Origin: a virus
DNA: 48,159 nt
Direction: 5' to 3' (one strand)
IMG/VR virus record: IMGVR_UViG_3300032106_000033
Shown here: one piece after another, positions 14,411-20,620 of the stretch
How the letters are laid out: every line of letters begins with the position of its first letter
Position numbering within the stretch: the first letter of the stretch is position 1
Notes under the pieces: model-generated
Databases searched by the model: none
Told to the model about the DNA's origin: nothing
Seen by the model: the letters and a program-made list of their open reading frames with translations, nothing else
Translations under genes and position numbers: made by a program

Positions 14411-15256
14411 ATGAAACATATTTGCAAGATCCGCAAGGCGTTAGCCCATCTCATACCAAGGGCAAAAAGCGGCGTAAATAATTTTGCCCTCGTCTTCCCC
14501 AAGGCCGAGACCATCTACTACTACGAACGGGTGTGCTACCACGCCCTGAACTACGACAATCACGAATACACCATAGACGGAGGCCCCATCGCCTTCCTCT
14601 CCACCATCCGCCCCCTCAAAACTGTACTTTCGAAGGACAATAAGGTGGCAGCCATCACCTTCCTCGACTGGACGTTTAACGACAGCCCCTTCGCCTCCGT
14701 ATTCTATACCAAAAACGGTAGGAATGCGTTGAGAGGGGGGGTCGTCTGTCATACGAACGTGGATGCGTCCCTTCTGATCGGTGGCCTGAGCTTGGTGAGG
14801 GAGCTGAACGAGGAACCCATAAAAGTAGTGATATGGTACGAGCTGGTACGCTTGGGCATGGACCCATTGTATGCGTACGTTGCCACCTATATGCTCCAAA
14901 GCACAGAGGGTAAGGGCTTCCAATGGAAGAAGCCACCGTACAATGGCAACCACCTATCCCTGCCTGCTATCCTTTCTGCCAAATATATCAGGTCCTTCTG
15001 CAAGGGGAAGGTAGTGATCAAGAGACACATATTCAAGGAGAATACCAACTTCATGGGCATCTTCAACCTATGGGGTCATTACCACGAGGGCGGCGCGCAC
15101 CGCTTCATGTTCAGCAAGAAGGGAACCAAGATTAAGTACGACGGATGGGGAGCGTACCAAGATCATAGAACCATAATAGCCTTCCCGGAAGAGGGGGATA
15201 GGATTACGTTTGTTAGAGAATTTTCACATCAAATGCAGGAGATTTGTAATGGTTAG
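14411..15256 (+). CDS. Orphan protein, first gene of the amide-ligase cassette
   Basis: 281-aa ORF with no motif I recognise. Translationally coupled to the next gene. Confidence 0.6.
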   Translation: MKHICKIRKALAHLIPRAKSGVNNFALVFPKAETIYYYERVCYHALNYDNHEYTIDGGPIAFLSTIRPLKTVLSKDNKVAAITFLDWTFNDSPFASVFYTKNGRNALRGGVVCHTNVDASLLIGGLSLVRELNEEPIKVVIWYELVRLGMDPLYAYVATYMLQSTEGKGFQWKKPPYNGNHLSLPAILSAKYIRSFCKGKVVIKRHIFKENTNFMGIFNLWGHYHEGGAHRFMFSKKGTKIKYDGWGAYQDHRTIIAFPEEGDRITFVREFSHQMQEICNG

Positions 15257-15899
15257 GCGGGTGTTCATCATCGATTCTAACGCTCAGTACGTGAGCATGT
15301 TCGAGGAGCACAACGATTACACAGTGGTGGGAGCCTATGACGAGGCGGACCTGATCCAGTTCACAGGGGGTAGTGACGTGACCCCTTCCTACTACGGGGA
15401 GAAGGCACACCCCACCACCTATAACAACCCGGCACGGGACGAGGAAGAGAGCATCATCTTTCGACAAGCCTTCCTTCGCAACACACCGATAGCTGGCATA
15501 TGCAGAGGCGGACAATTCCTGCATGTGATGAACGGTGGCAAGATGTACCAGAATGTCGATGGGCACTGTAGGGACCACAAGGTACTTGATATTCAGACCG
15601 ACAGGATGTACACGGTGAGTAGCGTACACCATCAAATGATGCGGGATGCCTACGTAGAGGATGGTTCTGTTAGTAAAGTTTTGGCAGTGGCTGAGAATGT
15701 AAGTGGGTATAAGGAGTGTATGGAAGGGGGTATGGTGGTGAGAAAGCAAGCTAAGTTTCACTCTTATGATCTTGAGGCCATCTTCTACCCCCTCACCCGT
15801 AGCCTGTGCTTCCAGCCACACCCCGAGTTCAGTGGGGTTGAGGAGTGCCGGGAGCTGTACTTCAGGTACTTGGACGATCACATTTTTAACACGGAGTAG
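15249..15899 (+). CDS. Class I glutamine amidotransferase-like / peptidase C26 (gamma-glutamyl hydrolase-type) protein
   Basis: GICRGGQFLHV (nucleophile elbow G-x-C-x-G-x-Q), SSVHHQMM and FQPHPEF (His-x-Glu). The ATG at 15249 overlaps the upstream stop. The ORF track starts at 15210. Confidence 0.75.
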   Translation: MVRRVFIIDSNAQYVSMFEEHNDYTVVGAYDEADLIQFTGGSDVTPSYYGEKAHPTTYNNPARDEEESIIFRQAFLRNTPIAGICRGGQFLHVMNGGKMYQNVDGHCRDHKVLDIQTDRMYTVSSVHHQMMRDAYVEDGSVSKVLAVAENVSGYKECMEGGMVVRKQAKFHSYDLEAIFYPLTRSLCFQPHPEFSGVEECRELYFRYLDDHIFNTE

Positions 15900-15900
15900 G

Positions 15901-16011
15901 ATGATGACCGACAAAGAAAACCTCAAACAGACAGAAGAATGCATCGACATAGCCTTTGTTGTCTCGGCTATCATCCTGATTGTCGTCATCATCTATGCAG
16001 TAGCAACATAA
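15901..16011 (+). CDS. 36-aa single-TM microprotein inside the cassette
   Basis: MMTDKENLKQTEECIDIAFVVSAIILIVVIIYAVAT. Starts 2 nt after the previous stop. Confidence 0.4.
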   Translation: MMTDKENLKQTEECIDIAFVVSAIILIVVIIYAVAT

Positions 16012-16021
16012 GGAGTAGGCC

Positions 16022-18180: not shown

Positions 18181-18365
18181 CCATACAAGAGATGTTCCCC
18201 GTGGAAGTGGAGCTGACCTTCAAGACTGTAGTAGAGGGGGGAGGCACCCAGAATGATGCGTACATGGCCGCCATCAGTGAGCTGAAGCGCCAGCTTGAGG
18301 CCGCAGACAGCACCGATGATGTCATCATGGTCTTCAACAAGTATGAGATAACGCCATGTTCTTAA
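18177..18365 (+). CDS. 62-aa acidic small protein inside the cassette
   Basis: ATGA overlap upstream and a 10-nt overlap downstream. MTIQEMFPVEVELTFKTVVEGGGTQNDAYMAAISELKRQLEAADSTDDVIMVFNKYEITPCS. Confidence 0.55.
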   Translation: MTIQEMFPVEVELTFKTVVEGGGTQNDAYMAAISELKRQLEAADSTDDVIMVFNKYEITPCS

Positions 18366-18955
18366 GCCTGGGCGATGCCAAGATGCGGTTGGAGAACGTG
18401 GTGGTGCGTCACAAGGGCGAGCCCATCTACATCCACAATGTAGAGCAGCCAAGGGTGAGCTACATCCTACACATCGAGTATCTCAGGACACAGATCGCTG
18501 GCCGGGTCAACCTCAAGGACAAGGGGGTGGACCTCTCCCCTGTGCCATTGGGCAACATGAATCATGAGGGCAACTGCTTCTTCGCCAGCCGGGCACCTTT
18601 ACGCATGTGGAAGCAGGGCCTACATCGAGACAGCTTCATATGCAAGAGCATGGAGCGTGGCTTCGTTGGTATCCCCATCAATTGCAAGGCTCTCGTCAAC
18701 ACCATCAACAACGAGTACCCATCTATTGAAGAGGGATGGAAGATGATTGAGCAAGGACAGATGGCTAGCGTAGCCTTCTCTCGTAACTTCTCTTTGATGG
18801 AAAAGCGGACCCTTGTGTTCAATAGCAAGCTGATCGTAGGCTCCCTACATAAGGACCTTGTGTCCTTCCACCTTGAGAACACATACCTGTACCTCAAGGA
18901 ACATCTCCAATCCTCCATGATAAGGAAGGCCCATGAATATCCAGGAAATTTTTAA
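18356..18955 (+). CDS. Orphan protein inside the cassette
   Basis: 199-aa ORF with no recognisable motif. Coupled on both sides. Confidence 0.6.
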   Translation: MFLSLGDAKMRLENVVVRHKGEPIYIHNVEQPRVSYILHIEYLRTQIAGRVNLKDKGVDLSPVPLGNMNHEGNCFFASRAPLRMWKQGLHRDSFICKSMERGFVGIPINCKALVNTINNEYPSIEEGWKMIEQGQMASVAFSRNFSLMEKRTLVFNSKLIVGSLHKDLVSFHLENTYLYLKEHLQSSMIRKAHEYPGNF

Positions 18956-19865
18956 GGTACGTAAGAGAGCGGGAGAGGTTGGCATCGAGATAGAGTGTGA
19001 GGGACAGAACCTCATGATGCCTGACCTGTACTGGGATGCGGTACATGATGGCTCCCTTCGGGGCTTGTCTATCGAGTACGTCCTTAAGAACCCAGCCAAG
19101 AGGAAGGAGATTAGTAAGGTGTTGAACTACCTTTACAAGAGCTGGAAGGATCACGGCGCCGTCATTAATGACAGCCCACGTACCAGTGTCCACATACATG
19201 TGAACGTACAAGAATTGGAGGTGCGCAACGTCATCGCCTTCTACTGTCTGTATAACATACTGGAAGAGCTGCTCGTCAAGTTCTGTGGCAAGGGGAGGGA
19301 GGGCAACCTCTTCTGTCTCACCAGTACCGATGCCAACTTCGCACTTGATTTGCTGTGTAACATAGTGGCAAGGCAGGAGTGGTACAAGTTTAAGGATCGT
19401 AACTTCCGATACAGTGCGGTCAACTTCAACTCCATCCCCAAGTTCGGCAGCCTTGAGTTCCGTACCATGCGTGGTACCAGGGACATTGCTCTGATCAAGC
19501 GGTGGATCAACATGCTTCTGAAGATCAAGGACTACAGCCTTCAGTTCAAGCAGCCCGCCAACATCATCGAGCACCTGTCAGCTAGAGGGGGGAGGCAGTT
19601 CGTTAATGATGTGATGGAGGAGTATGCTGTATCCCTCCTTGCTTACCCAGATATAAACAACATCATAAGACAAGGGGTGTGGCGTATACAAGAGCTGGCC
19701 TTCATCCCCATCACCGACAAGAAGCCCCGCCAAGTTATCAAGGCAGAGAGAGCCTGGGCAGAGGAAGGCCCGATGATGGCAGGTGGCGACCTCGATATAG
19801 ACCATGAATTCCGTATGATGGAGGCAGGTCGCCCCATCCCACCGCTAAGGGGAGCACAGCGATGA
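18933..19865 (+). CDS. Amidoligase_2-type (glutamine synthetase-like) amidoligase
   Basis: VGIEIECEG, TSVHIHVNV, RYSAVNFNS and GSLEFRTMRGT. SD aaggaagg. Confidence 0.8.
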   Translation: MNIQEIFKVRKRAGEVGIEIECEGQNLMMPDLYWDAVHDGSLRGLSIEYVLKNPAKRKEISKVLNYLYKSWKDHGAVINDSPRTSVHIHVNVQELEVRNVIAFYCLYNILEELLVKFCGKGREGNLFCLTSTDANFALDLLCNIVARQEWYKFKDRNFRYSAVNFNSIPKFGSLEFRTMRGTRDIALIKRWINMLLKIKDYSLQFKQPANIIEHLSARGGRQFVNDVMEEYAVSLLAYPDINNIIRQGVWRIQELAFIPITDKKPRQVIKAERAWAEEGPMMAGGDLDIDHEFRMMEAGRPIPPLRGAQR

Positions 19866-20620
19866 AGACGTACATGTATGTTGGCAACCCAAAGAGCCGG
19901 GGTGCCAGTAAGTTATGCGAAGGGCTCGGTATCCAAAGGATCAAGCATGAAGGGTCTAATTTTGTGGGAGGACCGGAGAAGAGGGTCATCAACTGGGGGA
20001 GCATTAAGATACCTGACGAGGTGAACAAGTGTAAGATACTGAACGCGGCCTATTGGGTGGGGCTGAACAGTGACAAGTACTTGTTCTTTAAGCATATGGA
20101 TGGTTACTGCCGCATCCTCGAGTTCACCACGGACATAGTGTACGCTGCACAGTGGATTGCTCAGGGTTACAGCGTGGTGGAGAGGCATCAGCTGAGGAGT
20201 AGTGGGGGTGCAGGCATCCGTATAGTTCAGCATGTGGAGGCCTTAGAGGAGGCCCCACTGTACACCCGATACCAGAAGAAGCAGGACGAATATCGAATCC
20301 ACCTGCACAAGATAGACTTGATGAAGGGGATAGTATTTGACATGCAGCAGAAGAAGCGCAAGGATGCCTTCGAGAACCCCAACTGGATGGTACGCAACCA
20401 CAAGAACGGGTTCATCTACGCACGGAAAGATATCAAGGTACCTGCGGACGTGGAGAGCCAGGCTATCCGGTGTTTCAATCGCACGGGGCTGGACTTCGGG
20501 GCAGTCGATGTGATCTATGACACCAAAGATGGTAAGGCTTACGTCCTTGAAATCAACACCGCGCCGGGCCTCCGAGGCACCACCCTGGAAAATTATTTGG
20601 AATTATTTTGTAACGATTAG
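19862..20620 (+). CDS. ATP-grasp ligase (RimK/glutathione-synthetase-like)
   Basis: EYRIHLHK, RNHKNGF and GLDFGAVDVIYDTKDGKAYVLEINTAPGL. ATGA overlap upstream. Confidence 0.8.
   Translation: MKTYMYVGNPKSRGASKLCEGLGIQRIKHEGSNFVGGPEKRVINWGSIKIPDEVNKCKILNAAYWVGLNSDKYLFFKHMDGYCRILEFTTDIVYAAQWIAQGYSVVERHQLRSSGGAGIRIVQHVEALEEAPLYTRYQKKQDEYRIHLHKIDLMKGIVFDMQQKKRKDAFENPNWMVRNHKNGFIYARKDIKVPADVESQAIRCFNRTGLDFGAVDVIYDTKDGKAYVLEINTAPGLRGTTLENYLELFCND

Follow-up and report, generated by a model that had tools for sequence, protein, structure and literature searches.

What would a virus with a 48-kb genome build with a run of genes for enzymes that make and break amide bonds? The question is raised by positions 14,411–20,620 of IMG/VR record IMGVR_UViG_3300032106_000033, a stretch of viral DNA 48,159 nucleotides (nt) long that we call the window and number from its first letter. 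A first-pass annotation, made from this sequence and the translations of its open reading frames (ORFs), had described the block as a cassette of nine members, with two amidoligases, an ATP-grasp ligase, two enzymes of glutamine amidotransferase (GATase) or hydrolase type and several orphan proteins, and had rated it an oddity of high interest. Comparison of the products with known families and with their relatives indicates that the block is this phage's fairly divergent copy of the known podovirus amidoligase/amidotransferase/ATP-grasp module, which is both long known and very common: tblastn with its PF14395 ligase returned 319 GenBank phage records, all below 60% identity. The best explanation as a whole, to which we assign a probability of roughly 0.6, combines this identity with a glutamate-centred mechanism and a preference for a macromolecular acceptor.

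All nine ORFs lie on the plus strand, and independent gene calling on an identical public contig (Logan SRR12068624, 48,161 nt) gave the same genes as the window. In order, they are:

14,411–15,256, plus strand: O281, a conserved protein of 281 residues (phrog_27195/34254), first gene of the module
15,249–15,899, plus strand: enzyme of class-I GATase fold, Peptidase_C26 (gamma-glutamyl hydrolase) type, by Pfam and PHROG
15,901–16,011, plus strand: ORF of 36 residues with a hydrophobic C-terminal half, called as a 35-residue gene on the identical contig
16,022–17,377, plus strand: N-terminal nucleophile (Ntn, class-II) glutamine amidotransferase/amidohydrolase, by Pfam, AlphaFold and Foldseek
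17,377–18,180, plus strand: PF14395 phiEco32-like COOH-NH2 ligase type 2, by Pfam, PHROG and tblastn
18,177–18,365, plus strand: acidic ORF of 62 residues ending in ...ITPCS, between the PF14395 ligase and U199 genes
18,356–18,955, plus strand: U199, a conserved protein of 199 residues (phrog_11055, 1e-29 in PHROG)
18,933–19,865, plus strand: PF12224 Amidoligase_2, by Pfam and PHROG
19,862–20,620, plus strand: ATP-grasp ligase nearest the RimK/alpha-L-glutamate ligase branch, by PHROG and an orthologue profile

Eight of these are large ORFs that lie where the first-pass annotation had placed them, the small one at 15,901–16,011 being the ninth. The junctions also read as it had given them (ATGGTTAG at 15,249/15,256, TAATG at 17,377, ATGA at 18,177 and 19,862, and overlaps of 10 nt at 18,356/18,365 and 23 nt at 18,933/18,955), and all 15 of the peptide motifs that it quoted were located in the products it named. 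Real as the start/stop overlaps are, they do not set the block apart, for overlaps of 4–25 nt run throughout the plus-strand gene array.

The families proposed earlier for the enzymes were borne out by Pfam for the Peptidase_C26/class-I GATase, the Ntn class-II GATase and the PF14395 and PF12224 ligases, and the RimK-like ATP-grasp was placed through PHROG 2599 and its orthologue profile; PHROG E-values for the five enzymes range from about 1e-51 to 1e-81. The PF14395 ligase (Pfam 6e-10, 39.2 bits against a cut-off of 25; phrog_3815 at 4e-81) is the module's most conserved gene, with 38 residues conserved to at least 90% in 54 orthologues, including D9/E11, E50, H135/H137, R180, R191, K193 and E198/R200. 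Its best matches come from oyster-metagenome Zobellviridae, Pseudomonas phages PA11, TC6 and O4, Salinivibrio CW02, Citrobacter CVT22, Klebsiella Klyazma and phage tf. In the PF12224 ligase (2.4e-8, 34.6 bits against a cut-off of 22; phrog_7469 at 5e-69) the motifs E19-x-E21-x-E23, H87-x-H89 and E175-x-R177 are intact and conserved to at least 90%. By Pfam's classification both ligases would belong to the GS/GCS superfamily.

The third ligase, the product at 19,862, matches phrog_2599 at 8e-66. A profile built from 35 of its orthologues retrieved the RimK-type structures 7qys, 7qyr, 5zct and 4iwx at 1e-16 over some 185 residues, with cyanophycin synthetase and D-Ala-D-Ala ligase (Ddl) following at 1e-9 to 1e-8 (5e-8 for Ddl), and 27 of the 35 orthologues match PF08443 (RimK). 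The residues for ATP and Mg (K72, E143, R145, D216, E230 and N232) are invariant. The branch of RimK, MptN, CofF and LysX thus holds the best solved relatives, and its Lys, Glu-x-Arg, Asp and Glu-x-Asn residues are kept in the phage family; a difference is that the window encodes neither an S6-like nor a LysW-like partner. With a score of 16.5 bits against a cut-off of 143 for the curated RimK family (TIGR00768), its sequence points to kinship with RimK at branch level only.

Of the two enzymes expected to act on glutamine or gamma-glutamyl groups, the product at 15,249 scores far better against PF07722 (1.6e-19, 71 bits) than against the generic PF00117 (6e-6, 26.5 bits), and matches phrog_7218 at 8e-51. 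Its best NCBIfam matches, gamma-glutamyl-CDP-amidate hydrolase and PuuD, are weak, the latter scoring 29.7 bits against an equivalog cut-off of 266. The Cys85-His191-Glu193 triad is intact and conserved to at least 90% in 40 orthologues.

The Ntn enzyme is longer and composite. Residues 1–230 form the glutaminase domain (GATase_6/7 at 4e-19 over residues 1–185), a disordered linker of about 40 residues follows (242–282), and residues 290–451 make up a beta-rich domain with a four-cysteine zinc ribbon (C411, C414, C437, C440). The AlphaFold model has a mean confidence (pLDDT, predicted local distance difference test) of 88, the C-terminal beta/zinc-ribbon domain being confidently predicted. Foldseek matched the model to PurF, GlmS, AsnB and EgtC at 1e-12 to 1e-10, covering its N-terminal part only; profile searches for the C-terminal domain found no PDB or Pfam relative, and a Pfam scan of 21 such domains gave no consistent family. 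Across orthologues C2 is nearly invariant, and R80, N105-G106 and D123 are conserved to at least 90%. These align with the residues by which GlmS holds glutamine at its alpha-carboxylate, its oxyanion and its alpha-amino group. Retention of such a pocket argues for a substrate with a Glx moiety bearing free alpha groups, so that the enzyme would expect glutamine itself or a gamma-glutamyl amide. None of the module's proteins reaches the NCBIfam equivalog cut-off of a housekeeping enzyme. With catalytic residues conserved to at least 90% in the orthologues, all five enzymes look active.

How far the block is a unit was judged from its relatives. GTDB genomes scanned with an alignment of the PF14395 ligase gave 47 loci, to which seven GenBank phage and metagenome loci were added; components were counted in the 22 loci where the PF14395 gene is flanked by 6 kb or more on either side, with hidden Markov models (HMMs) made from sequences of the window and of its relatives. 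The first-pass annotation had proposed a neighbourhood survey for the same cassette, and the cassette does recur, across GTDB loci and GenBank phages and metagenomes alike. The Ntn-GATase and the ATP-grasp ligase are present in all 22 loci, PF12224 in 21, the C26 enzyme and U199 in 20 each, O281 in 11 and a GGACT cyclotransferase in 8, and a primase/helicase gene lies directly downstream of the module in 15. The commonest order is that of the window: O281, C26, Ntn, PF14395, U199, PF12224, ATP-grasp and then primase/helicase. It is shared by PA11, CW02, CVT22, an oyster-metagenome member of the Zobellviridae (PQ867848) and the closest metagenomic relatives.

In the two closest relatives (L057 and L058 in our numbering of loci; 41–70% protein identity) the seven genes are contiguous and the small ORFs are absent: the genes that flank the position of the 62-residue ORF overlap directly, and those that flank the position of the 36-residue ORF abut. 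The conserved core therefore comprises seven genes, not nine. All nine ORFs exist, but a cassette of nine members was an overstatement, and the four proteins grouped earlier as orphans divide into two conserved members of the module (O281 and U199) and two small ORFs that, judged by these relatives, are lineage-specific inserts outside it. The 36-residue ORF has no homologue in any relative examined, the closest two included; the 62-residue ORF has no PHROG or Pfam match and no homologue in the relatives examined. Considered as a Pup- or LysW-like carrier, the latter was ruled out by its absence from the closest relatives. The window gave no HMM or Pfam match for GGACT, which cannot be obligatory because only 8 of the 22 relatives carry it.

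The GTDB loci are mostly short fragments or contigs of about 45–55 kb with a phage gene order. They come from metagenome-assembled genomes of diverse phyla (L010–L056, including Saccharibacteria, Flavobacteriia, Gammaproteobacteria, Cyanobacteria and Clostridia); the contigs of about 45–55 kb are most probably entire genomes of phages that were binned with these assemblies, which makes their host labels unreliable. Among the 47 loci, no informative bacterial operon placed a PF14395 relative in a cellular, non-phage context.

The two conserved proteins without a ligase or amidotransferase assignment deserve separate description. Homologues of O281 occupy the same position in 11 of the 22 surveyed loci, those of the two closest relatives being 48% and 41% identical to it. 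The family is very divergent, with a column identity of about 20%, but C42, S92, R130, E134 and H181 are kept, within the patterns CHAxL, WLxNxSP, RxxxE and GH. This set of C, S, R, E and H residues suggests an unrecognised enzyme. Sequence and profile searches with O281 found no Pfam or PDB match, and 16 homologues scanned against Pfam gave no consistent family.

U199 lies beside the PF14395 ligase on its downstream side in 20 of the 21 surveyed loci with a detectable U199, and is always directly upstream of PF12224; a divergent equivalent can be recognised in some of the remaining loci (e.g. L033 and L040). One database holds 101 homologues and a second 5181 representative clusters, the lengths being 178–219 residues in the best 150 of those 5181. 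Ten pattern matches in 185,579 species genomes were not confirmed in any case. No consistent Pfam family emerged from 100 homologues, and no relative from sequence or profile searches of the PDB. The AlphaFold model (pLDDT 95.4) is beta-rich, with small barrels of SH3/Tudor/KOW-like appearance. Foldseek gave no significant fold match to it in the PDB (best E = 0.02) and found only uncharacterised phage proteins in BFVD. A relationship to EF-P/eIF5A was considered and rejected: EF-P and HEX-1 head the Foldseek matches at only E = 0.02 with a TM-score of about 0.23, and comparison with Escherichia coli EF-P by hhalign was negative.

In the literature, Duhaime et al. (2017) described a seven-gene "peptidoglycan modification cassette" with a gamma-glutamyl amidoligase, a second amidoligase, an ATP-grasp enzyme, a GGCT and a GATase, and listed as carriers RIO-1, phiEco32, 7-11, PA11, tf, MR299-2, LUZ24, PaP3 and CW02 (PMC5498523). 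The computational descriptions date from 2009–2013 and are credited to Iyer (2009) and Hardies (2013) in PMC5498523 and PMC11945000. The same label, with the idea of superinfection exclusion, appears in PMC11945000 and PMC10580990, and PMC11706807 repeats the idea of superinfection immunity only. The same gene set is described in a further genome paper (PMC3890496), such papers mainly listing the genes. That no product or target had been established, as stated earlier for this DNA, agrees with what we found: gene-level biochemical or genetic characterisation of the module was met nowhere in this literature, within which Iyer (2009) and Hardies (2013) are represented by the papers that cite them.

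Set against the podovirus cassette of phiRIO-1/PSA-HP1, PA11, CW02, CVT22, tf/LUZ24/PaP3, phiEco32 and 7-11, the block in the window has the same families, order and position upstream of the primase/helicase gene. Its proteins are 24–52% identical to their orthologues in PA11, CW02 and CVT22. It differs in having the additional ORFs of 36 and 62 residues and in being without the GGACT/GGCT gene of CW02, tf/LUZ24 and many metagenomic relatives.

What the module would do can be proposed from the precedents of its families. Because the characterised members of each recognisable enzyme family in it act on glutamate or glutamine, it would be a glutamate-centred pathway that forms and trims amide bonds in the infected cytoplasm. 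Characterised members of the GS/GCS superfamily typically activate the gamma-carboxylate of glutamate. As a first step, the PF14395 and PF12224 ligases would each activate a carboxylate as an acyl-phosphate and then join it to an amine. ATP-grasp enzymes of the RimK branch add glutamate to a glutamate carboxylate, and the phage enzyme might, as a second step, lengthen the product by another residue in alpha linkage, most likely glutamate. Class-II GATases and EgtC bind glutamine or gamma-Glu-X; the Ntn enzyme could either give glutamine-derived ammonia to an activated carboxylate or cleave a gamma-glutamyl amide. Finally, the C26 enzyme would remove gamma-glutamyl groups, a task for which many relatives also encode a GGACT cyclotransferase: C26 enzymes hydrolyse gamma-glutamyl amides and GGACT enzymes cyclise them. 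The product expected from these steps is a short glutamyl or glutaminyl conjugate on an amine- or carboxylate-bearing acceptor common to very different hosts. The general proposal made earlier, of a cassette for building or trimming an amide of gamma-glutamyl or peptide-like kind, is reasonable.

Known systems resemble parts of this scheme. In the PuuA/PuuD putrescine pathway, too, a ligase (there a GS-like gamma-glutamyl-amine ligase) works together with a Peptidase_C26 hydrolase of gamma-glutamyl bonds, but the phage ligases are of the PF14395 and PF12224 families rather than Gln-synt_C, and the oxidase and dehydrogenase steps have no counterpart. In the biosynthesis of ergothioneine (EgtA/EgtC) and of butirosin (BtrJ/BtrG), a ligase of GCS or ATP-grasp type attaches a transient gamma-glutamyl handle, which an Ntn amidohydrolase or a GGCT subsequently takes off. 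The GGCT of tf is annotated as BtrG-like, and EgtC is among the Foldseek matches of the Ntn enzyme in the window; the likeness is at the level of folds and families only, the window having no EgtB/EgtD, carrier protein or aminoglycoside genes.

As to the acceptor, we judge a protein or a cell-wall precursor more likely than DNA. With its tethered zinc-ribbon domain the Ntn enzyme appears to carry a part for docking, and U199, rich in barrels, looks like another; both suggest an acceptor that is macromolecular or bound in a complex. Any single acceptor is unlikely to be the right one. A peptidoglycan precursor and a small amine or peptide metabolite are the best placed, equally so; a protein is rather less probable, DNA or a nucleotide clearly improbable, and what is left falls to some other acceptor or to general nitrogen metabolism.

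Several points weigh against the glutamate-centred reading. The chemistry of every step is assigned by analogy, it is the synteny of the seven genes that would place them in one pathway, and to hold a protein or a cell-wall precursor more likely than DNA as the acceptor is a judgement. Sequence and profile searches of the PDB returned no solved relative of either the PF14395 or the PF12224 ligase. Compared with each other by hhalign, their orthologue alignments reached a non-significant probability of 0.14, although the HxH motifs aligned, and their GS/GCS assignment would follow from the Pfam classification together with the shared E-x-E, H-x-H and E-x-R motif pattern. Searched alone, the product at 19,862 has ATP-grasp matches in Pfam that are all below threshold. 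The invariant residues of U199 are G66, R79, R83 and G88; with no Lys, Glu or Asp among them, U199 is unlikely to be a modified substrate, and going by its model it looks like a binding or adaptor protein.

Of the dedicated alternatives, the one that survives best is that the module remodels the stem peptide of peptidoglycan precursors, by amidation or by addition through an unusual linkage, and so alters the wall to block superinfection or modulate lysis. The stem peptide offers gamma-linked D-Glu, free carboxylates and an amine, and is conserved across hosts. Cell-wall amidation uses both GATase classes, in MurT/GatD and in LtsA/AsnB. The C-terminal model of Ddl is weakly matched by 22 of the 35 ATP-grasp orthologues, and the cassette occurs on contigs binned with Gram-negative, Gram-positive and other lineages. 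This proposal is published (PMC5498523, PMC11945000, PMC10580990), and the targets listed in the first-pass annotation were incomplete for leaving it out. Set against it, the module has no conserved Mur-ligase, transpeptidase, membrane protein or protein with a signal peptide, and the ATP-grasp profile is much nearer RimK than Ddl (1e-16 versus 5e-8). The carriers, moreover, are strictly lytic phages in which the module stands beside replication genes, and their short cycle would leave little time for wall turnover. On balance we consider a role in the wall possible but doubtful.

A second alternative is protein tagging or polyglutamylation, in which, as in the RimK, Pup or tubulin-tyrosine-ligase systems, a Glu or a short Glu/Gln chain would be placed on a protein of host or phage and edited by the hydrolases. 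The best structural relatives of the ATP-grasp enzyme are RimK proteins, which glutamylate ribosomal protein S6, and PafA and Dop of the Pup system form a pair of GS-like ligase and amidase paralogues. Weak matches to R2K_2, R2K_3 and TTL were obtained for 20, 11 and 7 of the 35 ATP-grasp orthologues, respectively, and proteins are the predicted targets of the R2K clade (PMC4431377). Two parts resemble docking modules in the models, namely U199 and the zinc ribbon tethered to the Ntn enzyme, and divergent cassettes add a small zinc-ribbon protein with an acidic tail. The window, however, holds no conserved small tag protein: the 62-residue ORF is lineage-specific and ends in ...ITPCS rather than GGQ or GGE, Pfam gave no Pup_ligase or Pup match, and U199 has no invariant acceptor residue. 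Tagging of this kind seems to us unlikely.

We give about the same low credence to a fuller version, in which free glutamate would be gamma-linked to an amine of a conserved host or phage protein (less likely of a nucleic acid) and extended by the RimK-like ligase, with the Ntn, C26 and GGACT enzymes as editors, U199 and the zinc ribbon as adaptors and O281 as an additional enzyme.

The small zinc-ribbon proteins just mentioned (MRCxxCN..TRK..F.DLC..C, with a long acidic tail) follow the ATP-grasp gene in a divergent sub-group of loci (L031, L032, L033, L039, L040, L042, L044 and L049), and similar small proteins occur in L024 and L030. In L031, L033, L040 and L042 the zinc-ribbon protein comes directly after a conserved protein of about 250 residues. 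Absent from the window, these proteins recall LysW-type carriers or acidic-tailed mimics of DNA or protein. Fission or fusion between them and the C-terminus of the Ntn enzyme was considered and rejected, some loci having both.

Hypermodification of DNA or nucleotides, by which bases would carry a glutamyl, putrescinyl or amide-type decoration against restriction, was among the targets listed earlier and is disfavoured here. The module lies directly upstream of replication genes in 15 of the 22 loci, and in metagenomic contigs Lee et al. noticed that genes for thymidine hypermodification had amidoligase and amidotransferase domains as neighbours (PMC8989533). In tf the module is followed by a MazG-like gene, and the window encodes a ribonucleotide reductase and a dCMP deaminase. 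Yet among the plus-strand genes of the window there is no thymidylate-synthase-like dUMP/dCMP hydroxymethylase, TET/JBP dioxygenase, glycosyltransferase or deazapurine gene, and searches of PHROG and Pfam, with small ORFs under 100 residues partly scanned, gave no match to 5-HMUDK or aGPT-Pplase. DNA of tf, moreover, is cut by RsaI, HpaI, EcoRV, SmaI and HaeIII, whose sites jointly hold all four bases, and its fragments were cloned (PMC3517423). Since enzymes that supply or transfer a 5-hydroxymethyl-pyrimidine were not found in the window and tf DNA is restriction-sensitive, a decorated base is improbable.

Least probable is that these are auxiliary metabolic genes that raise host nitrogen, glutamine or glutathione metabolism with no dedicated product, as suggested for Phage-ZRK32, a carrier of the cassette for which a nitrogen-metabolism benefit was proposed in an eLife paper with no gene-level test (PMC10945688), and for StenR_269, whose genes were termed "glutamine synthesis genes" (PMC10747016): the ligase families, like U199, are all but confined to phages, no member scores as a housekeeping equivalog, and the fixed synteny of the seven genes argues for a dedicated pathway.

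The window itself is a Zobellviridae-like podovirus with a complete-looking genome. Structural genes (portal, terminase, internal virion protein and tail) are on the minus strand, and the plus strand carries the early genes, the cassette and a replication module with primase/helicase (21,140), sigma factor (23,509), PolA (23,945), exonucleases, ribonucleotide reductase (30,331) and dCMP deaminase (32,447). No GenBank phage matched the window at the nucleotide level. Identical copies of its proteins occur on public contigs of three sources (JGI, ENA and Logan; the longest contig is 48,208 nt), from which we conclude that it is probably the whole genome of a phage that was recovered on several independent occasions. 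Beyond the nine ORFs, three features adjoin the block:

14,299–14,345, plus strand: hairpin with its core stem at 14,305–14,324, between the early small-ORF block and the cassette
14,361–14,391, plus strand: repeated intergenic motif TATACYACC..AAAACAC..AGCGTTACAAA of about 31 nt, with a second copy at 9,532–9,562
20,627–20,965, plus strand: protein of 112 residues (phrog_19233 at 2e-7), directly after the ATP-grasp gene and outside the 14,411–20,620 block

The hairpin that had been noted at 14,305–14,324 is real and extends to 14,299–14,345 (dG −18.4 kcal/mol, z = −3.2; none of 200 shuffles folds as well). No run of T follows it, and it may be a terminator, an attenuator or a processing site. 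The motif ahead of the cassette, likewise noted before, proved to be repeated at 9,532–9,562 with 74% ungapped identity (family D14 in the repeat search). Both copies are intergenic and each precedes a block of plus-strand genes; since the second occupies another intergenic stretch, the pair is plausible as a phage-specific promoter or regulatory site, possibly for the phage's own sigma factor. Scans for promoter and terminator consensus sequences around the block gave counts at or below shuffled expectation. The 112-residue protein has the same position in the two closest relatives (55% and 43% identity), was not found in more distant ones, and may be an accessory member.

The sigma-70-family factor (Sigma70_r2/r4) at 23,509–24,018 lies between the primase/helicase and PolA genes. 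In each of the Zobellviridae-like relatives examined a sigma-70-family gene (r2 region) occupies this place as well, which suggests that the phage directs middle or late transcription. A SLOG-family protein (Pfam YAcAr, 1.9e-9) is encoded at 29,946–30,329, immediately before the ribonucleotide reductase gene; SLOG domains bind or process nucleotides. Other genes were seen beside the module in relatives: a trypsin-like serine protease right after the ATP-grasp gene (L008, 11,695–12,351), an RNA ligase upstream (L058, 2,182–2,847) and a glutaredoxin downstream (L009, 12,025–12,264).

The analysis adds to the published picture a core of seven genes, two usually ignored members that are not ligases, and a glutamate-centred chemistry for which DNA modification is an unlikely end. 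The window offers no easier route to function than the cultured relatives, its worth being that of a compact reference copy. The module is among the most widespread phage gene sets with a clear enzymology, and knowing what it makes would account for a step of infection conserved in phages of Pseudomonas, E. coli, Klebsiella and Vibrio and in many marine phages, several of them used in phage therapy. Were glutamate indeed conjugated to a host or phage protein, the result would be an infection-specific post-translational modification of a new kind, common to hundreds of phages.

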